Positions 5,566 to 32,233 of a stretch of 64,000 nucleotides of DNA are shown in pieces; within the stretch, counting starts at the first letter, position 1; each line of letters begins with the position of its first letter. The notes beneath the pieces were generated by a model. The model was not told the DNA's origin, made no database searches, and saw nothing but the letters and a program-made list of their open reading frames with translations. The stretch spans positions 5,092 through 69,091 of the forward strand of contig WVZY01000076.1 of the NCBI GenBank assembly GCA_011772205.1, written 5' to 3'. The DNA comes from Candidatus Latescibacterota bacterium (GTDB lineage: Bacteria; Krumholzibacteriota; Krumholzibacteriia; WVZY01). A program made the translations under genes and the position numbers.

Positions 5566-7932
5566 CTACGCCGCGAGTTTCTTCCTGAGAATCAAGATAC
5601 CGGTTATCAACGTCAGCAGCACCAGCACCACCAGACCCCAGCTGCTCAAGGCAGGCACATCGGCGGGAGTGTATTGTATCTCGAAATCAGCCTCACTCGT
5701 ATCCGCTGCACAGTTGTTGTCTGGGTCATAAGCGACCACCATGATCCTCGAGTAGATCGAAGGCGGGCCGGTGACCGGCCAGAGATAACTTCCGTCGTTT
5801 GGCTCCGCAGTGGTGAGTGTTTCCGGATAAGATGCTCCACCGTCACGAGAAAGCAAAATATCGATCAAACACGTGCCCGAGTTATCCGAAGCGGTCCACT
5901 GAACGTCTTCGTCGTCTCCGATTAGCCAAAGTTCGGCTCCAGTCGTGGGTCTGTCCAGGCTTATGATCGGTGGATCGGTATCAGGTAATGCGCCCATGGC
6001 CAGCCAATCAACCGCTCGTTGCATCAGAAGATCACGGTCAGCCGAAGTGTTTATGGCTTCGAAGCCAAAGGCGAGATAGACGATTCGATGCGGTGATTCG
6101 CATTTGATGCCGCCTGCGGAACCCGAGACATACTCGAACACTTCCGTGGCTCCAATCCGTGCATTGATCTCGCTCGGCCAATCCTGGTTGTTCGACCCAT
6201 CCCCTCCGCCGATGTCGAAGCTCATGCCGTTTCCCACGGGGTCCCCGGAGACACCGGTGAGTGAGCGGTATCCGGAGTCATCGAGGATGTAGTCGGCATG
6301 AAGATAGTTATTATAGAAAACAACGTCGCCGGGAGTGTGGCCCGAATAATCGTTTAGGTACCAGCCAATGTCCTGGCCCGTAAACAGCGCGCGGCCCCCG
6401 CCGTCGAGGTAGCTCGATATAGCAGCCTGGTTGGTGGAGACGATGCGCCCGGCAGTACCGGTTTCCCAGATGACGATGAAATAGGGAGCTAAATCGGAAG
6501 AGCTGGGGCTGCCTCTGTCTTTCTCGTTCCAGACATCGTAGAGGTACTGGTTGTTATCGAGCGCCTGCATGAAATAGCTCTCGTATGTCGCACCATCGTC
6601 GTCATCCACCAGGAGAATCGGCATATCTCCTATCTTCACATAGAACGTATCCATCCGGGAACATCCGCCGTCGGCACTGATGTTCAGAGTGAACTCGATT
6701 AGATCGCCGACGGTGAGCAACCGATTGAATGACATCTGATATGGCGTATGAGAATCGCCTTCCTCTCCAGCGTCCAGGTCGGGATAGGTGGAAGTGTCGC
6801 TGCTGATTTCCACCCAAGGATGTGAGCAGCCGATTGTTGCCGATATGCCTGTTTTGAGGTTTGCGAGTATTTCGTTTTTCAATGTGACGGTTAGATTTAC
6901 GGATTCGCCGGCATCGACGCGTCCGTCACCATCTCCGCTGCTGTCGTCTACGGTCTGGTCCTCGTATGCGATATCCGTTGCCTCGAAATAATAAACTGCC
7001 TGTGTTGCATAACCAATGTTGCACGAACCGTACTTGATCCAGAAATAACCATCCATGCCCCAATCCGTCCCCCAGCTGTTCTTAACGAGCCATGCTCCTT
7101 CTCCATCGCATAGGTTATCGTTCCAGCCGATAATGACAACAGCGTGGTTAATGGGATCATCTCCCTCGTGCTCGTAACAGCCTTCAGTGTAGTAGCGGAA
7201 ATCATCGTACACATGAAATGTGGTCGCAACAGGGCCATGGTTCATCACCTTTTCCTTGATTGCTTCCACAATATTGGGGATATCTTCCCAACCATTTGTC
7301 GCAGCGTATTTCTCGCATGTTTCTTCGGTGCAGGGCTCAGTATCAGTCGCCACATACGGCATGCAGCTCTCCAGCGCGGCTCCGTATTGTTTGAAATGGT
7401 TCCATGCGGTACTCATCCATCCGCCGCTGCATCCGTAACCGAACGTCGCGCATCAAAGCACCTGTTGCTCGGAAAGATCGTATTCGAATCCACTGTTTAT
7501 GAGGACCATCGATTCCAAAGCACCCACTGCGGCGAAATCCCAGCAGCTGCCGCAGCCGTCTTGGTCCTTGACCGGTGTTACGCCGGCATAGTCGCGCCAA
7601 TCGAAACTGGACGGGAATTGCAGGTTTCGCATGTTGTAGGCTGATGTGATTTTCTCGAAACGATCCACTGCCTCCGGTGGGATTCGCAAACCGAGAAGTC
7701 GTTGGAACTGCTCGGACGAAAGCTCGGAGACAGATGTTCTGCCGGCCGTCCACTGGTAGCCTTTTTCTGCAATTCGCTGTTGCACTTGTGACAGCGTCTC
7801 GAATGGCTGATCGATAGTGATTTGTGTGTTGCCCTTCTGCTTGGTTTCTACGGAGCCAGCATTTTCAGATAAGCCGGATACGGGGATCAGAGAAAGTGCC
7901 AGAATGGATGCAATGACGGCAGCGGTTTTCAT
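5566..7932 (-). CDS. Secreted papain-family (C1) cysteine peptidase with C-terminal beta-sandwich repeats and a C-terminal TM/basic anchor; interrupted by one in-frame TGA at 7452..7450 (pseudogene, sequencing error or recoding)
   Basis: N-terminal piece (7932..7453) has a signal peptide, propeptide and the catalytic Cys motif [17 protein letters not shown]. It ends ...LSEQQVL followed by TGA. The same frame then continues ...[20 protein letters not shown]... with catalytic His (NHAVVIIGW) and NSWG. C-terminus is ...[27 protein letters not shown]. Confidence 0.65.
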
Positions 7933-8813: not shown

Positions 8814-10796
8814 TCAGAATCGCCCGGTTAGGTAAACGCTGAAGAGATTTGTGAGAGATTCGCTATCCTGATCACTCCAAGTAATCCTGCCATCGATCCG
8901 CTGATATTGCAATTGTACAGAACTGTTTTTATTGAGACCGTATCGGGTGGTTACTACAAGTGCTTTTCGAACTTCATCGAAGGGACTGACGCTTCCTTTT
9001 CTCCATTTCCCGTGATCCAGCCACCCTACACCTCCGCCCAATCCATTCGGCAGTTCAACATCGATCGATGCACCCAATAATGATGCTTTCTCCCTGTCAG
9101 CTCCAGTTACGAGGACTTCCAACTCGCGAAGCCTTTTGTAGAAAAGTGAGACGACGGCAACATCCCTGAAGACCGGAATATCAGTGGAGAACCGGACACC
9201 CTCTCTATCCGGCTCGTATGAGAGGGCAGCGAATGGCGAGTAAAAGTTCGCGGTCAAGTAGAGATAATCCGCTCGGAATCTCCAGACAGGTAACCGTTCG
9301 AAAACGACGCCCGCAATGCCGCCTCTGCCCTCAACTTTGAGAAGATCATCGCAGCAACTCACACCGAAACCATGGCTCTTTGCCTGATTCCACACTATCC
9401 ACTCGCCTCTCAAATCGACAGAACGAACAATTGGGACGTTCCAGGTAGCCGTTATGAGTATCGATTCATTCCAGGGATACACAACTGGATAGCCCAGCCG
9501 GATGAAATCCACCGAATGGCGGTTTTCCCAGCTTCCTACTAGATGGAGTCCGGCTTTCCAAGAGGAGCCCGTGCGCGAATCGAATTTTTTCCAAAGAGAT
9601 TCGAATCCATATATCTCGAGGGAGTAATCTGCCCTCTCTGCACCCGTGGAACGAACTTCCAGATAGGTTGTCTCCGTTGCCCTCCGGGGAATTGCATAGA
9701 AAGCGCGTGTCTCTATATTGGGACTCCGGTAAAAAGTGATGCCTCCCTCGAACGTGAGCTCGGGATTCAGCTCTTCCAGGCTCTTCACGAGAAGAATGCC
9801 CGCCGTTGCACCACAGCCGCAGCTTGCGTTGCCTCCAACTCGTGGATTATCGTCCCAATCCCAGCGCATCAATGTGAGAGGTGTCATGAAGATTTCATAA
9901 TAGCCGAGCCTCAAAAGGAATCTTCTAGCCGTTATTTCAGCGTAGGCGCTCCCCCATTCGGATCCCAAATATTTCGGTCCCGCTTCGAGGACTTCTTTGC
10001 CTTCGTTGCTGATCCGGAGGAGGCCGCCGATTCTCACGTGCCTTCCGAGCCTACGGGACATTTCGAGTTCGAACCTGAAGAGGAGATTGTTGCCGGGATG
10101 CACCTCTTCACCGTAGGGTCCTGCTGCGTCCATTCCTCGAGCATCTATACCGAGAAAACGGATCCTCTGATCCCCTCGAAACACGATTCCTCCAAGATAG
10201 CGCACACCCTCGTCTGCTTCTTCGCCGCCCGGCACTGCGACTTCTTCCACCTCCCGACCGGCGATACTTACCTTCTCGGCTGCGAGCATCTCTTTCATGA
10301 TCGCTTGGATGTCGCCTTCCGGATCGGGCTTGCGGGCGATGATCTCTCCGCGCTGATCCACGAGGAACAGTGTGAACGTCCCGAGTGGCGCGTTATAGTT
10401 CTGTGCAGCTTCGCCACCGGTGTCCCAGGCTTGGGGGAAGGTAATGCCGTTGGCTTCGATCAGCTGGCTGACTTCGAACAGATTCCCTTCATCGAGGTGG
10501 ATTCCAAATACGCCGATGTTTTCGGTTGCGTGATCCTGGTAGAAAAGTTCGCAGCCCGTGAGCAGTTCGACACAATGGGGACAACCGCTCTCCCAGAACA
10601 CCAGAAACGTATATGCGTGTGAGGAGAAAAGTTCGCGGGAGTTCATGTAACCGTCACCGCTCAAAAGGGGCATATCGAATAACGGCGCCCTGCTGCCGGG
10701 TACAGCGGATTGAGGATTCTCAGCGGCGACCGGAGCCGGTACGGTCTGAGGCAAAAGGAAAAGGGCGAACGTAAGTATGCTGGGAACTGCTTTCAT
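8814..10796 (-). CDS. Secreted thioredoxin-fold (CPHC active site) domain fused to a large probable outer-membrane beta-barrel domain
   Basis: Signal peptide MKAVPSILTFALFLLPQTVPAPVAA. Thioredoxin-like segment FLVFWESGCPHCVELL. About 450 aa of alternating amphipathic beta-strand-like sequence ending in ...LFSVYLTGRF, the C-terminal aromatic typical of OM barrels. Confidence 0.6.
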   Translation of the reverse strand: MKAVPSILTFALFLLPQTVPAPVAAENPQSAVPGSRAPLFDMPLLSGDGYMNSRELFSSHAYTFLVFWESGCPHCVELLTGCELFYQDHATENIGVFGIHLDEGNLFEVSQLIEANGITFPQAWDTGGEAAQNYNAPLGTFTLFLVDQRGEIIARKPDPEGDIQAIMKEMLAAEKVSIAGREVEEVAVPGGEEADEGVRYLGGIVFRGDQRIRFLGIDARGMDAAGPYGEEVHPGNNLLFRFELEMSRRLGRHVRIGGLLRISNEGKEVLEAGPKYLGSEWGSAYAEITARRFLLRLGYYEIFMTPLTLMRWDWDDNPRVGGNASCGCGATAGILLVKSLEELNPELTFEGGITFYRSPNIETRAFYAIPRRATETTYLEVRSTGAERADYSLEIYGFESLWKKFDSRTGSSWKAGLHLVGSWENRHSVDFIRLGYPVVYPWNESILITATWNVPIVRSVDLRGEWIVWNQAKSHGFGVSCCDDLLKVEGRGGIAGVVFERLPVWRFRADYLYLTANFYSPFAALSYEPDREGVRFSTDIPVFRDVAVVSLFYKRLRELEVLVTGADREKASLLGASIDVELPNGLGGGVGWLDHGKWRKGSVSPFDEVRKALVVTTRYGLNKNSSVQLQYQRIDGRITWSDQDSESLTNLFSVYLTGRF

Positions 10797-11009
10797 TGAT
10801 ATCAGTATGATTGAGTACGCGTCCCAAGATGCCCGCAGCTCAAGATTGTACACCGAGTGCAAGCGCGACACAGCGGAAATCGCACCATTGTCTCAGCAAA
10901 TTTCTCGCATTTCGCCGAGATATTTACTGAGACAGAGAGGCGAAGATGTAGTATCATCAAGGCTCTATGTAAACGTAACGATCTCGAAACACTAGATTTT
11001 GGAGCGGTG

Positions 11010-11651
11010 ATGCAAAATTTCCTGGCACAATGCGAAGAGGCCGTTTTAAAAGGCGAAAAAGCGCGAGCGGTGGATCTCGCCGCATCCGCCCTGGATAAAG
11101 GCTATGATCTCCTGGAGGTCATCGAAGGCGGTTTTTCAAAAGGAATCCGGAAGGCCGGAGAGCTGTGGGAAAAGGGTGAGTACTTCCTCCCGGAGCTTGC
11201 CTTCAGCGCGGAAGCGATGAAGGACGCTATGGAAGTGCTCCAACCCGGTCTGCTCGAGAGTAGCGAGCAGAGTCGCACAAAAGGGAAAGTGGTCATTGGA
11301 ACCATCCAGGGCGACATACACGACATTGGCAAGACGCTGGTCGCAACCATGCTGGCGGCAAATGGTTACAACGTCATCGATTTGGGAGCGGACGTCGCTT
11401 ATTCGAGATTCATCGAAGAAGTGAAGAATCAAAAACCGGAGCTTCTTTGTATGTCCGCCTTGCTCACCACGACAATGGCCGGGCAGGGACATGTCATCTC
11501 CCAGCTCGAAGAAGGGGGACTGAGGTCGCAAGTAAAGGTAATGGTTGGAGGGGCGCCGACGACTGCGGCCTGGGCGGAGGAAATCGGCGCAGATGGTTAC
11601 GCGGAGAATGCAGTCGAAGCGGTTCAGAAGGCGAACTCGCTTCTAATATAA
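11010..11651 (+). CDS. Corrinoid (cobalamin)-binding protein of a methyltransferase system (MetH B12-binding-domain / MtxC-like)
   Basis: B12-binding helical cap plus a Rossmann domain with GDIHDIGK (DxHxxG), SALLTTT (SxL) and VMVGGAP (GG) motifs. Confidence 0.85.
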   Translation: MQNFLAQCEEAVLKGEKARAVDLAASALDKGYDLLEVIEGGFSKGIRKAGELWEKGEYFLPELAFSAEAMKDAMEVLQPGLLESSEQSRTKGKVVIGTIQGDIHDIGKTLVATMLAANGYNVIDLGADVAYSRFIEEVKNQKPELLCMSALLTTTMAGQGHVISQLEEGGLRSQVKVMVGGAPTTAAWAEEIGADGYAENAVEAVQKANSLLI

Positions 11652-11833
11652 AAAAGTGTCCCGCAAGAGACCGACCAACGGCGTGCTGCACCTGATGGCT
11701 TCGAGTGCTGGCCAACCTTCTTGGAATGATCGATGTCTTTTTTGACGAAGCGGAGACACGCTGAGTGGAATCGGACTTAGTGATACTAAAAACTATTTGA
11801 GGATCATTAGAAACGATAGGACGCAGGAAAACG

Positions 11834-12787
11834 ATGACAGGCAAAATTGACCTTATCGAGCATTTTCGTAAAGGCAATGTTCTTTTTGATGGCGCGATGG
11901 GTAGCATGCTGATTGCCAAGGGGCTCCAGACAGGAAAACCTCCTGAAGAGTGGAACCGGTCCAAACCGTCCATCGTGCTTCAGATTCACAAATCTTATTT
12001 GGAGGCCGGCGCGCACATTATCGAAACGAACACCTTCGGCAGTACGCCTTCCCGTATGGCAAGCTTTGGCCTCGGTGACGAAGCGGGAGAATTGAACGTT
12101 GCTGCCGTCCGGTTAGCGAGGGAAGCCATCGCCGGTTTCAACCACGATCGTTCGGGGAAAAAAGGCGTTGCAAAATCCAATAACGAGATTGTACCTGGTT
12201 CTGCCGGCAGGTTCGTAGCATTCTCCATCGGTCCAACCGGCAAGATGCTCCCTCCGGTGGGGAACGCGAGCGAAGAGGAAATCAGAGCAGAATTTACCCA
12301 TCAGATAGAAAGCATCCGGAATGATGTCGATCTCTTCCTCATCGAGACGATCTTCGACACGAGAGAAGGGATCATAGCACTGGATGCCGCGAAAGCGCTC
12401 ACGACCGTTCCCGTCGCCGTGACTCTTACTTTCAGCAAGAATCCTCGCGGATTCTTCACGATTATGGGAGACGAAGCAAAAGATGCGATCGGGAAGCTCG
12501 AAAGAACCGGAGCGGATATAGTCGGCGCAAACTGTACGATCGCCAGCAAGGACATGGTGGAACTCGCACGGATACTGAGGGACAGCACATCCCTCCCGAT
12601 ACTTTGCCAGCCTAACGCCGGAAGTCCAACTGTGAAGGGAGGGATCCCTGTTTACGAGCAGCGACCGGAAGAATTCGCTGACGACGCCATACGGATTTTG
12701 GCCGAGGGGATTAACGCGGTTGGCGGTTGTTGCGGGACGACTCCTGAATTCATTCGCGAGGCTGCCGACAGGATGATCCGCCGGTGA
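11834..12787 (+). CDS. Homocysteine S-methyltransferase domain protein (MetH/BHMT-type Hcy-binding TIM barrel, Pfam S-methyl_trans)
   Basis: GAMGSML...ETNTFGST, then the zinc-ligand motif GANCTI...VGGCCGTTPEFI characteristic of the Hcy-binding domain. Confidence 0.85.
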   Translation: MTGKIDLIEHFRKGNVLFDGAMGSMLIAKGLQTGKPPEEWNRSKPSIVLQIHKSYLEAGAHIIETNTFGSTPSRMASFGLGDEAGELNVAAVRLAREAIAGFNHDRSGKKGVAKSNNEIVPGSAGRFVAFSIGPTGKMLPPVGNASEEEIRAEFTHQIESIRNDVDLFLIETIFDTREGIIALDAAKALTTVPVAVTLTFSKNPRGFFTIMGDEAKDAIGKLERTGADIVGANCTIASKDMVELARILRDSTSLPILCQPNAGSPTVKGGIPVYEQRPEEFADDAIRILAEGINAVGGCCGTTPEFIREAADRMIRR

Positions 12788-12829
12788 GTGGAGAACGGAA
12801 CGCACTAGCGGCCAAGGAAGCATCAGGCT

Positions 12830-13498
12830 GTGAGTAAGCTGCATCGATCAAGAGGATTCCAAATCGCAGTTAATAGAGTAGAAATCGCGCGGGTTCTCGG
12901 ATACAGGCGCAGTCGGATCCCCAAACGTGTGCGCGTGGTCCTTGACGAGATAGAGCCCACGGCCCGGGAGTTCGTCTCCCCTGCCTGTGTTTATCGTTAT
13001 ATGGTTCATGAAGAGCTATCTCAATCGGAGTACCTGCGCTGTTTGGATCAGGTGGTCCTCTGTCTCGTTACAATCGGCGGCCGCCTGGAGGAGGAAGTGG
13101 AACGGTACAAGCATGAAGGGGACCTGAGTCGGGCGCTGATCCTGGATACGTACGGATCTGCGGCGGCTGAGGCGGCAGCGGATGCAGCTGAAATGATGAT
13201 CCAAAGGGAAATCAGTTGCAAAGAACTGAAGTGCAGTTCCAGGTTCAGCCCGGGTTACGGCGAGTGGGATGTGGTGGAGCAGAGATGGATCCTTCCCGCC
13301 CTTCAAAGCGAATCCCTTGGTGTTCATCTTACCGAGGGCTGCATGATGGTTCCGAGAAAATCGATCACGTTCGCCGTCACCTATGGTGAGACTCCTGTCT
13401 CGCTTCGCGACGAGGGGATGTGCGAGGTTTGCGGGATGGTGAATTGTAGGTTCAAACGCATGGGTGGAGAGCACCCTGAAACAAGGAAAGAGAAATGA
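12830..13498 (+). CDS. MetH-type reactivation (AdoMet-binding activation) domain-like protein
   Basis: GTG start. Contains SRFSPGYGEWDV, which resembles the MetH activation-domain AdoMet-binding motif (written from memory as RxxPGY...). Stop overlaps the next start (ATGA at 13495). Confidence 0.65.
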   Translation: MSKLHRSRGFQIAVNRVEIARVLGYRRSRIPKRVRVVLDEIEPTAREFVSPACVYRYMVHEELSQSEYLRCLDQVVLCLVTIGGRLEEEVERYKHEGDLSRALILDTYGSAAAEAAADAAEMMIQREISCKELKCSSRFSPGYGEWDVVEQRWILPALQSESLGVHLTEGCMMVPRKSITFAVTYGETPVSLRDEGMCEVCGMVNCRFKRMGGEHPETRKEK

Positions 13499-14982
13499 AA
13501 GACGTTCATCGGCCCAAGATCAAGATGCTCTCGGAAGAAAATGTAAGGCAAATCGTCGGAGAAGCGCTCAAGACGCTTGCGGAAGTGGGTGTCTTCGTCG
13601 AAAACGATGAGGCAATCGAGCTCCTCGCGAGCGCCGGGGCGAAAGTCGCTGATGATCGAAAGAGGGTGTTCATCCCCGAGGAACTGTGCAATAAGTGCAT
13701 AAAAACAGTTCCCAGCTCCTACTCACTATACGATAGGGAGGGAAATGAAGTCGCCCGGATAGGTGGAGACGACGTGTTGTTCGACCCCGGTTCGGCAGCA
13801 ATTTATATCTATGATTTTCCAGAACAGAGGATTAGGAAGCCAGCAACCCAGGATGTCGTCGAATTCGTTATTCTCTCCGATGCGCTTCCGGCATTCAAAG
13901 CCCAAAGCACCGGCGTCGTGCCCGACGACCTGCCCGAAGACCTCGCAGACAGGTACCGGCTGTTCCTCGCTCTCATTTATGGGAATAAGCCCGTCGTTAC
14001 CGGGACGTTCACAAAAGAGGCATTTCCGACGATGCTCGCATTTCTCGTATCCGTGCGCGGTGGGAAGGAAGCATTGAAAGAAAAGCCGCTCGCCATATTC
14101 GACTGCTGTCCATCACCGCCCCTCATGTGGAGTGATCTTACGTGCCAGGCGCTGATCGACTGTGCCAGGAACGGCATACCCGCAGAACTCGTTTCCATGC
14201 CCCTTACGGGCGCCACCTCTCCGGTGACCCTGGCGGGTGCTCTCGTCCAACACACGGCTGAGGATCTGAGCGGCATCGTGATTCATCAGCTGGCAAATCC
14301 GGGGGCACCGATCAACTATGGCGGCTCACCCGCGTGTTTCGATATGCGGAAAGGCACCACGCCCATGGGAGCAGTGGAGACGATGATGATCGATGCCGCC
14401 TACGCCCAGATTGGAAAGTCATTCGGATTCCCCGTTCACGCATACATGGGACTGAGTGATGCAAAGCTTCCCGACTACCAGGCGGGATTCGAAACGGCCA
14501 TGGGAGCAACGATCGCTGCGCTGGCGGGAGTCAATGTGATATCGGGTCCCGGAATGCTCAATTTCGAGAGCTGCCAGAGTCTCGAAAAACTGGTCATTGA
14601 CAATGAGATTTGTGCGATGGCCGACAGGTTGATCGACGGCATCGCATTCCGCGAGGATGTGGTGGGATTCAATATTCTTCGCGAATTCGCCGACAGCAAA
14701 TCCTTCCTTACCTCGGAGCACACGAGGCGCTTCTTCAGAGAGGAAGTCTACTACCCTTCCAATGTGGTCGACCGTTCGACGGAGGGTGAGTGGGAAAAGG
14801 ACGGATCACTCTGCACGGCGGAAAGAGCGCACAGAAAAGTGCGCGAGGTTCTGGACAAGCCGGAAATCGTACCGCCTGGCAAAGCCGTCGTCGATGAGCT
14901 CGAATCGGTCATGAAAGCGGACGCGAAGAAATACGGAATCGACGAACTTCCCGATTGGAGATGCTACTTGGGCTCCGGTTGA
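13495..14982 (+). CDS. MttB-superfamily (trimethylamine-methyltransferase family, non-pyrrolysine) quaternary-amine:corrinoid methyltransferase (MtgB/MtpB/MtcB-like)
   Basis: 495 aa with no in-frame amber codon. Family-typical length and order of motifs (e.g. NYGGSPACFDMRKGTTPMGAVETMMIDAAYAQIGK, GVNVISGPGMLNFESCQSLEKLVIDNEIC). Translationally coupled to the upstream gene. Confidence 0.75.
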   Translation: MKDVHRPKIKMLSEENVRQIVGEALKTLAEVGVFVENDEAIELLASAGAKVADDRKRVFIPEELCNKCIKTVPSSYSLYDREGNEVARIGGDDVLFDPGSAAIYIYDFPEQRIRKPATQDVVEFVILSDALPAFKAQSTGVVPDDLPEDLADRYRLFLALIYGNKPVVTGTFTKEAFPTMLAFLVSVRGGKEALKEKPLAIFDCCPSPPLMWSDLTCQALIDCARNGIPAELVSMPLTGATSPVTLAGALVQHTAEDLSGIVIHQLANPGAPINYGGSPACFDMRKGTTPMGAVETMMIDAAYAQIGKSFGFPVHAYMGLSDAKLPDYQAGFETAMGATIAALAGVNVISGPGMLNFESCQSLEKLVIDNEICAMADRLIDGIAFREDVVGFNILREFADSKSFLTSEHTRRFFREEVYYPSNVVDRSTEGEWEKDGSLCTAERAHRKVREVLDKPEIVPPGKAVVDELESVMKADAKKYGIDELPDWRCYLGSG

Positions 14983-15251: not shown

Positions 15252-15788
15252 TCAAATGACGCCCCTGGCTTTCAAGGTATCGATAAACTCCTGCACAACA
15301 CCTTCCATGAATAGCTGATAATTGGGGTATTTCGTCTTCTCATCCATAACTTTGATATAGGGTCCGGCCTCCTGTGTCAGACTATCCAGCGTTCGCCATG
15401 CAAGATGTACAGGGCTTCCCCAATCTGCAGAAGATAAATATTCATATCCAACCTGCAACGTATCATTGAAGCCATCCAGGTTCAATTCCGTGGAATCATT
15501 TTGACTGAGGCGCAAAATGAAGCGAATGTCTTCTTGTAAATGGACGTTATTCGACTCGAAAACTCGATTGATGATTTGGCGAGCTTCGTTTTCCGTTACC
15601 ATGTCCGCCATCACCGGCGGTGGACCTACGGTACCGGCACTGTCGCAAGACTCGATTAGAGCAATCATTGCCAATGTCATGGCTCCACGTTTTAAAAGGT
15701 TCCCCGGGAAGGAGGGAGGCTTTCGAAAATAGAGTCCCTCCGGGTATTTAGCTAGATCATAATTCTTGGTCTTTTGAATCTGCAGCAT
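15252..15788 (-). CDS. Hypothetical protein, co-operonic with the radical SAM/SPASM gene (32 nt overlap)
   Basis: 178-aa ORF starting ATG 15788..15786 inside the 3' end of the rSAM gene. No recognisable domain. A possible internal start lies at 15680 (MTLAMIALIES...). Confidence 0.4.
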   Translation of the reverse strand: MLQIQKTKNYDLAKYPEGLYFRKPPSFPGNLLKRGAMTLAMIALIESCDSAGTVGPPPVMADMVTENEARQIINRVFESNNVHLQEDIRFILRLSQNDSTELNLDGFNDTLQVGYEYLSSADWGSPVHLAWRTLDSLTQEAGPYIKVMDEKTKYPNYQLFMEGVVQEFIDTLKARGVI

Positions 15789-16944
15789 CTCGTCTCCCCT
15801 TTCTGACCATGCAATCTTCTATGTATGATGAGATCGGGAATGTTTTCTCGTAGAATTTGCGCTTGAACAGCTCAGAATTCTTGCTCCAGAGTTTGTTTGC
15901 CAACCGATCGACGATAGGCATTAGCATCCGTTCGTGCTCGCAAATGATTGGAGGGATATGATTTAATTGCCCTGTTGCGCGCCAGTTGACGCATCCGCAG
16001 TACGTAGCGCAGCGACCTTCGAGAGCACATCCAGAACATGATTTCTTCTCCGAATAATTCTGTTCTATGTAATAACGTCGACGCGAGTCGTCGAATCCGT
16101 TGAATACATCGCCTATTGAGTGCTTCTGATGCCATTGATTGTCGGTACCGATGAACTGAACACATGGGTAGATACGTCCGGAGGCTGCTATGGCGATCTG
16201 GGAATTTGCCAGGTCGCACAGATCGCCATTGTCGTACCGTTTTTGTGCGTGGGTTTTTATTCGTTCATCAAACGGGCTGTAATAGATCTTTACCCCATTC
16301 AATATCTTTTCATAGTAGTGATGAGATAGTTTCTTGTACTGCTCTCTCAAAAGCTTGATGTGTTTTTCCCGCCATTGAGCTGAATAATCAAGTGTTTGCA
16401 AGATATAATGAAAGCCTTTCGTGAGTAAATCTTGGACACCTGACGCTAAGTATATTGCGGTTTCCGGCACGACAACAGATACAGCGGGCGTGTAGGGATT
16501 GAATTCGAAAATTTCATCCAGGAGTCTGACTGCTGAACGGTAGGAGCCTGTGTCGCAGAGATAACGCCTGGTTTTATTATGTTGCTCTTCGCTTCCGTCT
16601 ATGCTCAAGACGAAATAGATCTCTTTTTCTTTCAGATAAGCGAGAGTATCCTGGTTGAGCAGCGTTCCATTGGTGCTCATTCGGAATTTGATTTTTCCTT
16701 TGTGCTCGAGATGGCAGTACGCCACTATCTCCTTCATCAAATCGAAAGCCAGAAGGGGCTCACCTCCGAAAAATGTGACGATGCAGGAACGATCTGAGTT
16801 ATCACAGAGAAAATCAACTGCTCGCCTTGCTGTCTCAAAATTCATGCTTTTTTTCAGCTTCTTGCCGGTGTAGCAATAGGTGCAGCGAAGATTACAGTTA
16901 TGCGTCAAGCACAACGCCGCAAATTTTATTTTGGAAAACTCCAT
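15757..16944 (-). CDS. Radical SAM enzyme with C-terminal SPASM domain (anaerobic sulfatase-maturase / peptide-modifying maturase family)
   Basis: CLTHNCNLRCTYC (CX3CX2C) near the N-terminus, FGGEPLL, and a C-terminal auxiliary-cluster Cys motif CSGCALEGRCATYCGCVNW. Confidence 0.85.
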   Translation of the reverse strand: MEFSKIKFAALCLTHNCNLRCTYCYTGKKLKKSMNFETARRAVDFLCDNSDRSCIVTFFGGEPLLAFDLMKEIVAYCHLEHKGKIKFRMSTNGTLLNQDTLAYLKEKEIYFVLSIDGSEEQHNKTRRYLCDTGSYRSAVRLLDEIFEFNPYTPAVSVVVPETAIYLASGVQDLLTKGFHYILQTLDYSAQWREKHIKLLREQYKKLSHHYYEKILNGVKIYYSPFDERIKTHAQKRYDNGDLCDLANSQIAIAASGRIYPCVQFIGTDNQWHQKHSIGDVFNGFDDSRRRYYIEQNYSEKKSCSGCALEGRCATYCGCVNWRATGQLNHIPPIICEHERMLMPIVDRLANKLWSKNSELFKRKFYEKTFPISSYIEDCMVRKGRRDAADSKDQEL

Positions 16945-28063: not shown

Positions 28064-29449
28064 TTATCTTTTGATGGTTCTCAAAAACTCCTGGACTTCC
28101 GGAATCGCTCCCTGGTAGATGAGATACCCGTTGTAGGGCTCGCGATCGGTAATCTCTCCGTTGACCGGGGTGAGCATGATTTTCTCCACTTTCTCCCGAT
28201 CGTCCGTTTGTCCAAGGGCCCAGCAGAGCTTCATGTAAGCGACTTCAGGCAGCATGTTGCAGGCGGGAACCACGCCGAGTTCCATGATTTCCCGACCGGT
28301 TTCGTAAACATACATCTGCACATAGCCCCATAACGTTTGAACGGTCATATAAATGTGCACGCCTTTGTCGCACGCTCTTTTCACCGCGGGGTAGAGAGGC
28401 TTGTTGACGTGGCCGAGGCCGGTGCCCGCGATCACGATGCCGCGGTAGTTATTGTCCACGCATGCGTCCACGATATCAGGGAGCATGTTGGGGTAATAGT
28501 AGAGAATAGTCACTTTTTCTTCGAAGGCCGTATTTATCTTGGCGTTTCTATCGGAGCGGCGGCGTTTGTAGTCGTCCCTCAGATGGATCAATCCCTTGCG
28601 GTTGATCATAGCCAATGGTATATCCCCGATGGTTCTGAATGTGGAACGGTAGCTCGAGTGCATTTTTCGCACGCGCGTCCCTCTATGGAGGAGGCCGTAT
28701 TGATCCGAAGTCGGACCAAACATGCATACCAGAACTTCAGCGATATCACCCTCCGCTGCGGCCTTTACCGCGTTGATGAGGTTCAGCGCCGCGTCCGATG
28801 AAGGCCTGTCTGATGATCGCTGCGATCCAACCATCACGATAGGGATTGGTGAATCCTGCACCATAAAGCTCAAGATCGCTGCCGTGTGGTGCATCGTATC
28901 TGTTCCATGGCCGATCACAATGCCGTCCGCCCCTTTCTCTATCTCCTCGCCGATCCTTTTCGCGGTTTTTATGTATTGCTCGGGTCCCATGTTTTCACTG
29001 AATACTCCGAAGAGCTTCTCTGTGGTAAGATTGCAAATGTCGGCGAGCTCCGGAACCGAGCCGTACAGCTCTCCCGGTGAGAAAGCCGGGATCACGGCAC
29101 CTGTTCGGTAATCCAGTCGGCTGGCGATTGTTCCACCGGTACCGAAAAGCTTGACATTCGGCTTCTTGGAATCGTAGGGAAAATCCTTTTCAGGAATCTT
29201 GTAATGGGCTTCCCTCCGACCCATTTCTTTCAAGGAAATGATCGTGTCGGCGGTAAGACCGACGTTGTAACCGTTGTTCAGCTTGAGAACGATGTGGTTT
29301 TCATCCGCAGTCTCCGACCGCGGAAGAATGATGCCTCGAAAGCGGCCGCTCTCCGCCACGACATCCACATCGCTCCATACCGAAACGCCATGTTCTTTCA
29401 AAACAGCGAGGCCTTTGCCTCGGTATCCTTTGTACTTGTCGCTACTCAT
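28064..29449 (-). CDS. gatD: Glutamyl-tRNA(Gln) amidotransferase subunit D (archaeal-type GatD, asparaginase-like)
   Basis: GatD-specific N-terminal domain plus an L-asparaginase fold with GTGGTIAS and HGTDTM motifs. Confidence 0.8.
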   Translation of the reverse strand: MSSDKYKGYRGKGLAVLKEHGVSVWSDVDVVAESGRFRGIILPRSETADENHIVLKLNNGYNVGLTADTIISLKEMGRREAHYKIPEKDFPYDSKKPNVKLFGTGGTIASRLDYRTGAVIPAFSPGELYGSVPELADICNLTTEKLFGVFSENMGPEQYIKTAKRIGEEIEKGADGIVIGHGTDTMHHTAAILSFMVQDSPIPIVMVGSQRSSDRPSSDAALNLINAVKAAAEGDIAEVLVCMFGPTSDQYGLLHRGTRVRKMHSSYRSTFRTIGDIPLAMINRKGLIHLRDDYKRRRSDRNAKINTAFEEKVTILYYYPNMLPDIVDACVDNNYRGIVIAGTGLGHVNKPLYPAVKRACDKGVHIYMTVQTLWGYVQMYVYETGREIMELGVVPACNMLPEVAYMKLCWALGQTDDREKVEKIMLTPVNGEITDREPYNGYLIYQGAIPEVQEFLRTIKR

Positions 29450-29486
29450 GATTCAACCCATTCGTTCTTCGCCGTTGCTATTCGGA

Positions 29487-31502
29487 TCATTTCGCTTTTC
29501 TTCGCGCCTTGCGCTCTTGCACTTCATCCAGTGCGTCCAGCTCTTCGTTCAGAATTCCGGAAACGATTTGCCCTTCCACGCACCCGCGTAACCTTTCCAT
29601 GAGAATGCCCATCAGGTAACGGTGCTTTTTATCGCGTGTGTTCACGGTGCGCGGAAAGTCAGTCCGGTGAACGGCATTTTCGACCATTTTTCTCAAGTCA
29701 TCGTCCGGTACCGGATTGATGCCAAGCTCATCGAGAGCGCTCCGGATACTTTCATCTGGATCATTTGGCGCTCCCCCATTTCTTGCAGTGTCGTATTCAT
29801 TTCTCGTAATGAGGTGGCGGACGACTTCCACAATGCCCTCGCGCGCAAGGCGCCCGCTCCGATGAGCTTTAAAGAGACTGATGAACTCCTCATCGGAAAG
29901 GTTTTCCAAAGAGAGGCCTTCCCGATCGAGCGCTTTGGCATGCTGGTAAAGGGTCACGCCGGCAAGCATGGGATTTACTTCGAGTTCGTCCACCAAGCGG
30001 TCGAACAATAGTGCCCTCGGGGAATAGGAAAGCATCCTGATGACATCGTCGGGGAGGTTTAATTTTCTGTACTGTTTCTCGCGTTTCCACGGAGGGTCGG
30101 GCAGGTTTGCACGCGCTCTTTCGACTCTGTCGGAGGTGAGGGCCAGCGGCGGAAGGTCCGTGTCGGGATACATCCTATCCGGACCTGGAAGGATCCGCTC
30201 GAAACCATTGGTGCCATCATTCAAGGCCTGGCGCGTCTCATTCGGTATCCCCTCGGTGGCCTCCCTGGCACGGATGGCGATTTCATTGCACCCGCATTCG
30301 GCATCCTCCTTGTTTCCCCACACCAGTACGAGAGCGTCGTTGGGATTGGCCTGTACTCGCTGTCGTATGAGCTTCCAAAATTTTGCAGAGAGTGTTTCCG
30401 ATGCCGCATCCGAATGCACGATGTTTGGAAGTCTGGTGAGACAGGCGACGACTCTGACTCTGTCCGAGATTTCTTTGGCGAAAGTGGTGTCGGTCTGGGT
30501 CTTCTCGTTGAGGATTCCTGCGAAATTGTCGAGCCTCACGCAGTGTATTTCCTCGCCCCGGTCGATTGCCTGCTGGATCGGAGCATATTGAGTCTTCGAC
30601 ACGATTCGCGTTACGTCCTCGCTGCCGGAGGCGAATGTCGATGGGGTGATGCCTCTCTGTTTGAGGAGCTCACGGATCCTCAATAGATTCCACTGGCGCA
30701 TCGCTTCGTTGTAAATCAGCATCGGAATCCGTGAAAGGCTCGGCACACCCTTGATCTCGACCCTCGTGCCGCCATCGATACTCACATTGACGTCTTCCCG
30801 GGCCGCTCCGTGTCCCGTGCGCACATTGCCCGTTGCCCGGACGAGCCTTCGCAGAATTTCACCGACTTCGGCGGCTTCTTGGGGAGTCTTCATGTCCGGG
30901 TAGGTGACTGTTTCGATGAGCGGCATCCCAAGGCGGTCCGTGAGGAAAACACGCTGATGGCCGATGTCCGACACCTCGCGGCATGCGTCTTCCTCCAGCC
31001 CGAGTTGGGCAATACGTATTCTCCTACCCTTGAACGGAATCCATCCATCGACACCGAGAATAGTCGTTCTCTGAAAGCCGGTCGGAATGCTTCCGTCGAG
31101 ATACTGCTTGCGGGCGATATGGAGCTCGTTAACCAGGTTGAGATTCAACAGGATGGCGACTTTCAGAGCGATATCCAAGGAAGCTTCATCCATCATGAAC
31201 GGGGGTGTGTCGTCCATTTCATACGTGCACACCGTGTCACTGTGTATCCGGTAGATGATCTCCTTCTTCGTCTTGAATTCCATCAAAGCGGTTCCGTCGT
31301 ACTCACCCAATTCAGATAGCGTTGGCCTCATGTGCCGAAGGATCTCTGCATCGTACGTTTTGCTGTAGTGACCGGCAGGGCAACGGCAAAACAGCTTCTT
31401 TTCGGTAAGAAGCTGCTGGTGGATTTCGAGGCCGGCCTTTAGGCCGATCGACTCGTAATCCGCCGGCGTCATCTCGTCAAACGGCTTGAACTCGAAACGC
31501 AT
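29487..31502 (-). CDS. gatE: Glutamyl-tRNA(Gln) amidotransferase subunit E (archaeal-type GatE)
   Basis: N-terminus YESIGLKAGLEIHQQL...KLFCRC is GatE-typical. GatB-like core with an inserted AspRS-like domain. The start at 31502 is supported by a GAGGAG RBS 9 nt upstream; the longer ORF to 31679 would translate a tandem repeat. Confidence 0.8.
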   Translation of the reverse strand: MRFEFKPFDEMTPADYESIGLKAGLEIHQQLLTEKKLFCRCPAGHYSKTYDAEILRHMRPTLSELGEYDGTALMEFKTKKEIIYRIHSDTVCTYEMDDTPPFMMDEASLDIALKVAILLNLNLVNELHIARKQYLDGSIPTGFQRTTILGVDGWIPFKGRRIRIAQLGLEEDACREVSDIGHQRVFLTDRLGMPLIETVTYPDMKTPQEAAEVGEILRRLVRATGNVRTGHGAAREDVNVSIDGGTRVEIKGVPSLSRIPMLIYNEAMRQWNLLRIRELLKQRGITPSTFASGSEDVTRIVSKTQYAPIQQAIDRGEEIHCVRLDNFAGILNEKTQTDTTFAKEISDRVRVVACLTRLPNIVHSDAASETLSAKFWKLIRQRVQANPNDALVLVWGNKEDAECGCNEIAIRAREATEGIPNETRQALNDGTNGFERILPGPDRMYPDTDLPPLALTSDRVERARANLPDPPWKREKQYRKLNLPDDVIRMLSYSPRALLFDRLVDELEVNPMLAGVTLYQHAKALDREGLSLENLSDEEFISLFKAHRSGRLAREGIVEVVRHLITRNEYDTARNGGAPNDPDESIRSALDELGINPVPDDDLRKMVENAVHRTDFPRTVNTRDKKHRYLMGILMERLRGCVEGQIVSGILNEELDALDEVQERKARRKAK

Positions 31503-31536
31503 TGCAATGCTCCTCTCGCCACTTGAGGGGAGGGAA

Positions 31537-31608
31537 CCTCGGAGAAGGCCTCGGAGGAAACCTCGGAGAAGGCCCCGGAGCAAGTCCCGGGACGAGCCCC
31601 TGAGGAGG
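31537..31608. repeat. Degenerate 12-bp tandem repeat x6 (consensus cCTCGGAGaAGg) in the gatE upstream region
   Basis: Units at 31537, 31549, 31561 (nearly identical), then 31573, 31585, 31597 (degenerating). Confidence 0.7.
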
Positions 31609-32233
31609 GCCCAGGATGAAAGCTCAGCAGGAAAGCCTATAAAATTACAATTATTACCCTTCTCTTGATGCGACTTCAATATAATAATATTGGATCATAT
31701 GCGGATACAAGCGACGAGAGTTCTGTTAATACGCATGAATAGAACCGAAATCAGACGGGTTCGCTGCCGCCTTCATGATGGGAGGTAATCTATAAGAACA
31801 TCAGTCGAGGGAAACCATCAGGACACTCATTGTGACCGGTGACGGCGACTCGAAGGCACGTAGATTTGGGGTGCATCGATTGAGCGGGCCCGTTATTGTG
31901 GAGGTAGACATGGCGCTCCGCGCGGAAGGCCGGAAGAAATGAGATGAGCGGAAAGCCGAAGGTCGCTACATCTTCAACCTGTTGAAAAATATACGCTTAA
32001 CATTCTTTAAGTCTTTCTGACGGGGATGTTGTGTCTGAGAGACAACTGCCCATTATTTGGCCGAAAGTTGTGAAATTAATCACAAGCCAATGGGAGCAAA
32101 TATCTTACTGAATCGGGTCAAGGATCCTGTTTGGTAACCGTCTCCTTGCTGGTTCCGCGCCCGGATCTTTGAACCTCTCCGGTCTGGGAACACTTCTGAG
32201 GTGCTGTCTGCAGCGCCCTATTATATTTAAAGA

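Follow-up and report, generated by a model that had tools for sequence, protein, structure and literature searches.

A conserved four-gene operon in a Latescibacterota genome that may link an MttB-superfamily methyltransferase to homocysteine methylation

Background

What does an enzyme of the MttB superfamily do when its gene stands in one operon with the parts of a methionine synthase, and no folate module is found beside them? The question is raised by a 64,000-nucleotide (nt) stretch of contig WVZY01000076.1 (Candidatus Latescibacterota bacterium, assembly GCA_011772205.1), called the window in what follows, in which four + strand genes, cor, hcy, act and mttB, occupy positions 11010-14982. 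An earlier note, made from the sequence alone, had read this four-gene cassette as a MetH complement that lacks the methyl-tetrahydrofolate module and has a non-pyrrolysine (non-Pyl) MttB homolog in its place, and had predicted methionine synthesis from a betaine-type donor. The function of non-Pyl MttB homologs is a long-standing gap.

The reading that we favor, and hold to be probable if far from certain, is that methyl groups would pass from a donor to the MttB-clade enzyme, from there to the corrinoid protein and finally to homocysteine, with repair of the corrinoid by a TM0269-type protein that uses S-adenosylmethionine (SAM), and with no folate. The same hypothesis has been published for the same kind of cluster in another phylum (Williams et al. 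2022, PMC9324843). The value of this work therefore lies in the survey of the occurrence of the cassette, in a precise assignment of its modules, and in the evidence against a betaine donor.

Four genes and their modules

The coordinates of the open reading frames (ORFs) and their translations bear out the four co-directional genes, and every motif quoted in the earlier note is present in the translations. The ATG of cor at 11010 is preceded by GGAG, while the mechanical ORF begins at 10857. The start of mttB overlaps the stop of act by 4 nt (ATGA), and 42 nt separate hcy from act, in keeping with the partial translational coupling that had been proposed. The gap between cor and hcy is wider: this spacer (11652..11833, assigned to no strand, 183 nt) was read in the sequence, and it compares with spacers of about 12 to 40 nt in three orthologous Latescibacteria-type loci. 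It contains no terminator-like site on the + strand, and a scan for promoters and terminators gave no more than the shuffled expectation. An Rfam search over 10600-12000, that is, the region upstream of the operon and the spacer, returned nothing at E <= 1, and no riboswitch or leader RNA reached the gathering score in the window or in the three orthologous loci. Upstream, the operon is flanked by a divergent AhpC/TSA-like gene (8814-10871, - strand), and downstream by convergent genes. We conclude that the four genes form a self-contained unit.

The product of the first gene (11010..11651, + strand) has 213 amino acids and is an MttC/MtgC-type corrinoid (B12-binding) protein. Pfam places both PF02607 (1.4e-21) and PF02310 (2.1e-26) in it, so that the cap and B12-binding domain known from MetH are present, with the motifs DIHDIG (DxHxxG), SALL (SxL) and GG intact. 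It also passes the NCBIfam model TIGR02370, pyl_corrinoid (229.8 bits, cutoff 215.3), and its nearest solved chain is MttC of Methanosarcina barkeri (7xcn_M, 185.7 bits), compared with about 106 bits for the B12 domain of MetH. By score, then, this protein belongs with the methylamine-type corrinoid proteins.

The second gene (11834..12787, + strand, 317 amino acids) encodes a stand-alone, MetH-like homocysteine-binding domain of the zinc-dependent S-methyltransferase type (PF02574, 1.4e-66), the proposed methyltransferase 2 (MT2). The motifs DGxxG, ETNTF, GANC and GGCCGTTPE are all present, and with them the zinc-ligand cysteines found in MetH. Its nearest solved chains are the homocysteine domains of MetH (147.5 and 124.8 bits), and it is far from the stand-alone homocysteine methyltransferase HMT (45.8 bits) and from BHMT, the single-protein, betaine-binding enzyme of the family (44.8 bits, with BHMT chains spanning 42-45 bits); against NCBIfam PRK07534 it scores 169.2, below the cutoff of 338. 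This pattern fits a methylcorrinoid as the source of the methyl groups better than it does a direct transfer from betaine or S-methylmethionine. PF02574 also includes selenocysteine and other thiol methyltransferases, and one might suppose that the protein methylates another thiol or a selenol, or that the system mainly demethylates a substrate rather than making methionine, for which the lack of a methionine-related riboswitch could be cited. We consider this extremely unlikely: the nearest relatives are by far the MetH homocysteine domains, the zinc and substrate motifs are intact, and catabolism that ran stoichiometrically through homocysteine would demand its regeneration at the same rate. 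In two genomes of Latescibacteria type (survey loci L001, 13368-14255, - strand, and L004, 16750-17742, - strand), the cassette is followed 2-6 kb downstream by another free-standing PF02574 gene, a more divergent one; it is not present in the window.

The third gene (12830..13498, + strand, 222 amino acids) encodes a predicted stand-alone AdoMet (SAM)-binding reactivation protein of the TM0269 type. The Pfam match to PF02965 is partial (1.8e-7, 31.3 bits, cutoff 25), and the assignment was strengthened in three ways. The protein carries RFSPGYGEW (RxSPGYGxW), and RxSPGY..W is invariant in all 51 homologs of gene 3. A profile built from 28 homologs matched the structure of TM0269 (1j6r) at 3.9e-10 over almost its whole length. 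Finally, an AlphaFold2 model (mean predicted local distance difference test, pLDDT, 86.3, with a tail of low pLDDT) was submitted to Foldseek and retrieved 1j6r first (E 2.4e-12, template modelling scores 0.71/0.79), with the reactivation domains of MetH from Thermus, Escherichia coli and human next in rank. Sequence and modelled fold thus agree with those of the MetH reactivation domain with its RxxxGY motif, and SAM binding is predicted. The claim that reactivation would be MetH-style and SAM-dependent, rather than by a RamA-type enzyme, agrees with this motif and with the modelled fold.

Gene 3 also has a set of conserved cysteines: C198, C201 and C206 in 47 of the 51 homologs, and C78 in 43. 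They looked at first glance like a novelty of the cassette, an idea that was rejected since the C-terminal CxxCxxxxC is carried by 118 of 140 full-length representatives (50% clusters) of the wider stand-alone TM0269-like family. The solved TM0269 appears to be without it, its 214-residue chain stopping about 9 residues past the aligned region, and it has Phe opposite Cys78. The wide occurrence of CxxCxxxxC suggests an undescribed metal or iron-sulfur (Fe-S) site in this family.

The fourth gene (13495..14982, + strand) encodes a methyltransferase of the MttB superfamily, 495 amino acids long, the proposed methyltransferase 1 (MT1). PF06253 is matched at 2.8e-89 (299.9 bits, cutoff 25) from position 28 to 490 of the 500 positions of the profile, which completes the confirmation by Pfam of the domains named in the earlier note. 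The reading of this homolog as a non-Pyl enzyme also held. Its 495 codons include no internal stop, hence no Pyl codon. Leu320 stands opposite Pyl334 of M. barkeri MttB in the alignment, within a motif common to both proteins (SDAKxPDxQAG), and this column is Leu in 77 clade members and Met in 5. With 388.6 bits against TIGR02369 (trimethylamine methyltransferase), the protein remains below the cutoff of 525, so that neither the in-frame UAG nor the score of a true MttB is found. The protein is 100% identical to GTO51_10045 of a Candidatus Latescibacteria metagenome-assembled genome (MAG). Its nearest full-length match in the PDB is MtgB (234 bits; 33% identity over 448 aligned residues), and the Sinorhizobium meliloti homolog 4yyc scores 159 bits only. 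For the C-terminal catalytic half, the order is different: 204 bits and 41% identity to the Pyl-containing MttB, versus 161 bits and 36% to MtgB.

Taken by module, the system is on these comparisons a chimera, in which a methylamine-type pair of MT1 and corrinoid protein is combined with MetH-like acceptor and repair modules. As MT1 and the corrinoid protein are nearest to MttB and MttC, the operon is not simply a split MetH minus its folate domain. The earlier description as a MetH complement therefore stands for the homocysteine and reactivation modules, but is imprecise for the corrinoid protein.

Occurrence of the cassette

A scan of GTDB species representatives found at least 572 stretches that encode relatives of this MttB clade, of which the best 80 loci were kept. 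Gene order was surveyed by tblastn with the four window proteins over 82 non-redundant loci. The complete cassette, in the order cor-hcy-act-mttB, was found at 43 of them, and 9 more, truncated by contig ends, were consistent with it. At 21 loci the MttB ortholog was alone. Four loci, of an Aminicenantes group, had cor-mttB-act or cor-act-mttB and no adjacent hcy; two (L049 and L065) had cor-mttB-PF00809-hcy and no act; and the last three were other partial arrangements (cor-hcy-mttB, cor-mttB and hcy-cor-mttB). The neighborhood of MttB homologs next to PF02574, which had been put forward as a check on the prediction, thus turned out to be recurrent.

The closest cases are three orthologous Latescibacteria-type loci on long contigs, one of them a complete Latescibacterota chromosome of 3.83 Mb, in which the MttB proteins are 61-69% identical and the gene order is the same. 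These three loci and the window have this order in common and little flanking synteny. Among complete genomes, CP070631.1 and CP070677.1 carry the cassette and OY970208.1 carries it or its variant, and the labels of the carrier records include Latescibacterota, Krumholzibacteriota, Zixibacteria, Acidobacteriota, Ignavibacteria and Gemmatimonadota. The same order at 43 of 82 loci across several phyla argues that the arrangement is not due to chance.

In a neighbor-joining tree, the MttB proteins form one tight clade, far from the MtgB of Desulfitobacterium hafniense, and the loci where MttB stands alone fall into a few subclades nested among the cassette-bearing ones. The cassette is thus the dominant state of the clade, and probably older than the solitary state.

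The folate module and the proposed methyl route

The pterin-binding domain PF00809, which MetH requires for methyl-tetrahydrofolate, was not detected by Pfam in any ORF of at least 200 amino acids in the window. Six pterin-binding methyltransferases of diverse kinds, the E. coli MetH domain among them, were also run against the window as tblastn queries and gave nothing at E < 0.1. The claim that no pterin module is adjacent was therefore upheld for the whole 64 kb, and the same was true within 8-10 kb of the related loci surveyed, save L049 and L065.

In these two loci, of the same MttB clade, a PF00809 methyltransferase lies between mttB and hcy. The variant operon, which has no act, extends from 7226 to 11203 in L065 (Gemmatimonadota, CP070758.1; PF00809 at 3.2e-17 and PF02574 at 1.1e-68) and from 2348 to 6189 in L049, and represents a compact arrangement similar to MtgBCDE outside Proteobacteria. 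A further PF00809 gene was observed in a Latescibacteria MAG (DTXA01000049.1; L087, 6129-6929, and L088, 1016-1816). Its 266-amino-acid product combines PF00809 with a CdhD-like domain and is 49% identical to the PF00809 module of the variant, and its neighbors are unrelated, with no corrinoid gene nearby. This orphan methyl-tetrahydrofolate:corrinoid methyltransferase is a candidate remote partner for the corrinoid protein of the cassette.

These observations lead to the main rival explanation, namely that the cassette is the local part of a bidirectional system like MtgBCDE, in which a remote pterin methyltransferase also binds to the corrinoid protein. What MttB takes from its substrate would then flow mainly to tetrahydrofolate, for catabolism or one-carbon supply, and methionine would be made mainly from methyl-tetrahydrofolate, as in Ruegeria pomeroyi. 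Genes like mtgB, mtgC and mtgE are indeed present in the window, and the missing element, an mtgD-like gene, encodes the essential pterin-binding protein of that system; the R. pomeroyi genes are dispersed, and to this are added the two variant loci, the orphan methyltransferase, and the canonical MetH reported beside the cluster in other phyla (PMC9324843). On the other side, no pterin module is found in the window or around the surveyed loci apart from L049 and L065, and the dominant conserved unit consists of exactly four genes, without pterin module. The pterin-containing variant lacks act and is confined to one small subclade, and a remote module would still allow direct transfer to homocysteine. 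On balance we judge this rival possible but rather unlikely.

The route that we prefer, that of direct transfer to homocysteine, would proceed as follows. MT1, the MttB-clade enzyme, would transfer a methyl group from a small methylated compound to the Co(I) corrinoid of the MttC-like protein, and MT2, the MetH-like zinc domain, would pass it on to homocysteine to give methionine. When the corrinoid is oxidized to Co(II), the TM0269-type protein would return it to methyl-Co(III) in a reductive methylation that draws on SAM and an external electron donor. Methionine would thus be made without need for methyl-tetrahydrofolate. Such a folate-free route would probably be an accessory one, used when the donor is available.

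Several arguments favor this wiring. The homocysteine module is of the MetH kind, gene 3 has the modelled fold of TM0269, pterin modules are missing from the window and from around all but two of the surveyed loci, and in Ruegeria one corrinoid protein was shown by genetics to serve an MttB-family enzyme as well as a homocysteine module (PMC12478193). The MT1 and the corrinoid protein are both nearest to the members of one cognate pair, MttB and MttC, and the conservation of the four-gene cassette across phyla makes transfer from donor to MttB homolog, corrinoid protein and homocysteine the most parsimonious scheme. Several observations weigh against it. Canonical MetH has been reported in the same MAGs as the cluster (PMC9324843), which indicates that the cluster is not the sole methionine synthase there. 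No SAM or cobalamin riboswitch was found by Rfam that would tie the operon to methionine regulation. The solitary MttB orthologs at 21 loci have no cassette partners, and five loci of the Aminicenantes group have no adjacent hcy, a sixth (L073) having an hcy-like match about 7 kb upstream. The PF00809 gene inside the clusters of L049 and L065 indicates that the shared corrinoid can be wired to folate, and the orphan PF00809 methyltransferase makes a remote folate module possible in the source genome. Lastly, no biochemical characterization of a folate-less cassette was found in the literature searched. The wiring proposed in the earlier note thus stands as the most parsimonious for a conserved cassette, while its folate independence, given the two variant loci and the orphan module, is something that we infer. 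The statement that this wiring lacks biochemical characterization agrees with the literature searched, although the idea itself was published in 2022 (PMC9324843).

If the scheme is correct, many sediment and soil bacteria could draw on a methyl compound of their environment for methionine synthesis, independently of methyl-tetrahydrofolate, which would add a B12-dependent link between the turnover of methylated compounds and sulfur amino-acid synthesis.

The methyl donor

The donor can be approached through MtgB, whose glycine betaine site has been mapped with mutants and with a structure that contains the ligand (Picking et al. 2026, PMC13080624). In this site, the cation-pi contacts come from Y97 and F356, and the carboxylate is bound by R312 and H348; the characterized members, which all use acidic quaternary amines, are reported to have R312 without exception (PMC13080624). 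None of the four residues is kept in the clade studied here. Y97 is replaced by Ser in 82 of 82 members (S100 in gene 4), R312 by His in 65 and Gln in 17 (H315), H348 by Ser in 80 (S350), and F356 by Glu in 70 and Val in 8 (E358). The pocket signature is identical between cassette-bearing loci and those where MttB stands alone.

The proposal of a betaine-type donor, which would make the system a corrinoid-dependent betaine:homocysteine methyltransferase, does not sit well with this replacement of the whole site across 82 clade members, including the otherwise conserved Arg. It could be defended on the grounds that all characterized non-Pyl enzymes of the superfamily use quaternary amines (PMC13080624; PMC12478193) and that MtgB is the nearest full-length PDB match, but the closer relationship of the C-terminal half to Pyl-containing MttB speaks against it as well. 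On the pocket residues, we regard glycine betaine or another acidic quaternary amine as an unlikely donor, and the rival built upon it as quite improbable.

With Glu in place of an aromatic residue and with the Arg lost, the pocket would suit a methyl compound that is cationic and has no carboxylate. At the extreme, the donor could be a non-acidic methylamine such as trimethylamine (as the trimethylammonium cation) or a close analog, demethylated by a Pyl-free enzyme. This more specific idea we consider very improbable. Were it true, it would mean a bacterial methyl transfer from trimethylamine or a similar compound to homocysteine, giving methionine without folate, and it would imply that pyrrolysine is not obligatory for trimethylamine-type chemistry. 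The cluster offers a simple genetic selection, the rescue of a metE metH mutant, with which to find the substrate of this large MttB clade.

A clue to the donor was also sought among the neighboring genes. Clustering of 839 ORFs from all loci revealed no transporter or catabolic gene that pointed to a donor. The recurrent neighbors are limited to cassette-bearing loci, and several of the example loci are labeled Krumholzibacteriota, so that their recurrence looks like synteny within a lineage. Judged by eye, they are similar to peptidase, porin-like, radical SAM, thioredoxin-reductase-like, NadA and alcohol dehydrogenase proteins. The only recurrent neighbor confirmed by Pfam is an isochorismatase-family gene found directly 3' of mttB, on the same strand, at 9 loci (for example L055, 9451-10110; PF00857, 2.7e-37).

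Choline-O-sulfate was tried as a candidate and rejected. It had been suggested by a sulfatase gene that follows mttB in L002 and L004; this gene is convergent, scores best as an arylsulfatase and reaches only 97 bits with the choline-sulfatase model (cutoff 433), and at that place the window has a PapB-like radical SAM gene. We also noted an Rfam match to PYLIS_3 in L001 (10958-11057; 39.3 bits, threshold 38), inside the Pyl-less MttB ortholog. Recoding was rejected as an explanation; most likely the match is due to the likeness of the coding sequences near the former Pyl site.

Flanking genes and other features of the window

The convergent flank downstream of the operon (15252-16944, - strand) consists of a radical SAM/SPASM gene and a 178-codon ORF without family match. 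In NCBIfam, the former scores best with the model of the PapB-family ranthipeptide maturase, at 236.8 bits against a cutoff of 340 that it does not reach. The two may be a pair of the kind that makes ribosomally synthesized and post-translationally modified peptides, and probably have no relation to the operon.

The rest of the window contains an M1 peptidase with a type IX secretion system (T9SS) tail, HdrA/MvhD-like genes, a 2-oxoacid:ferredoxin oxidoreductase and molybdenum-cofactor genes, and looks like that of an anaerobic member of the FCB (Fibrobacterota-Chlorobiota-Bacteroidota) group. At 28064-31679 (- strand), it encodes a GatD protein (Asparaginase and GatD_N) together with a GatE-like one, in which GatB_N has a GAD insert. 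GatD and GatE form the archaeal-type Glu-tRNA(Gln) amidotransferase; here the pair is found in a bacterial, T9SS-bearing MAG, and it also adjoins the cassette in another Latescibacteria-type contig (L002, 13032-16345).

Finally, a gene for a papain-family C1 peptidase (5566-7932, - strand) is interrupted by one in-frame TGA at 7450-7452, at what we take to be the place where papain-type enzymes keep an Asp before the Cys. A pseudogene, an error of sequencing and selenocysteine recoding are all conceivable; Rfam gave no match resembling a selenocysteine insertion sequence.

Comparison with known systems

One related system is the MtgBCDE system of Ruegeria pomeroyi, Phaeobacter inhibens and Sinorhizobium meliloti (PMC12478193). 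Genetic work in R. pomeroyi found the corrinoid protein MtgC and the pterin protein MtgD to be indispensable to methionine synthesis as well as to betaine demethylation, attributed demethylation to PF06253 enzymes (MtgB), identified MtgE as the homocysteine module, and thereby established by genetics that one corrinoid protein is used in common by MttB-family enzymes and a split methionine synthase (Mausz et al. 2025, PMC12478193). The operon described here resembles it in having PF06253 and PF02574 modules on one corrinoid carrier, and in linking, as proposed, the demethylation of a methylated compound to methionine synthesis. It differs by having no local pterin module where MtgD is essential, by a TM0269-type and predicted SAM-dependent reactivation where a separate set of reductive cobalamin-reactivation genes is named, and by its compact form and its different MttB clade, the Mtg genes being mostly dispersed in aerobic Proteobacteria.

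The MtgB of D. hafniense (PDB 2qne, 9yce) belongs to the same superfamily and TIM-barrel family as gene 4, is likewise non-Pyl and has Leu at the Pyl position. None of its four glycine betaine residues is kept here, and its partner MT2 is a methylcobalamin:tetrahydrofolate methyltransferase (MtgA).

With MttB and MttC of M. barkeri (PDB 7xcl, 7xcn), the resemblance lies in the corrinoid protein, for which MttC is the nearest solved relative, and in the C-terminal half of MT1, with SDAKxPDxQAG in common. There, however, the enzyme has Pyl334, whereas here there is Leu and no UAG; the acceptor module is the MtbA/coenzyme M methyltransferase there and a homocysteine domain here; and reactivation here is not RamA-like.

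The split MetH of Thermotoga maritima (TM0268 and TM0269) has a stand-alone, compact reactivation protein with the same fold as gene 3 (1j6r) and a MetH-like homocysteine domain (1q7m, 124.8 bits). To judge by the title of Huang et al. (2007; cited in PMC7857596), TM0269 is required to reactivate MetH in that species. In the TM0268 fragment (1q7m, 566 residues, named 5-methyltetrahydrofolate S-homocysteine methyltransferase), the homocysteine module belongs to a longer polypeptide with methyl-tetrahydrofolate binding as well, whereas here it is free-standing, with no folate module nearby. The gene 3 protein has the C-terminal CxxCxxxxC and Cys78, which TM0269 appears to be without.

The closest counterpart is the cluster of Candidatus Electryoneota, stated to occur in diverse bacteria. 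Its MttB homolog was placed in an uncharacterized clade, nearer MttB than MtgB, and the cluster was hypothesized to perform a novel corrinoid-dependent methyl transfer that makes methionine from an unknown donor (Williams et al. 2022, PMC9324843). Compared by its published description, that cluster has the same four components as the locus described here, whose genes are adjacent and co-directional and whose MttB homolog is Pyl-less; the phylum is different, Latescibacteria in our case, so that work on other phyla had independently arrived at the same hypothesis. The locus thus joins a published cluster type, and the idea is not new. What is added is the survey of the occurrence of the cassette, the evidence that argues against a betaine donor, and the precise assignment of its four modules.

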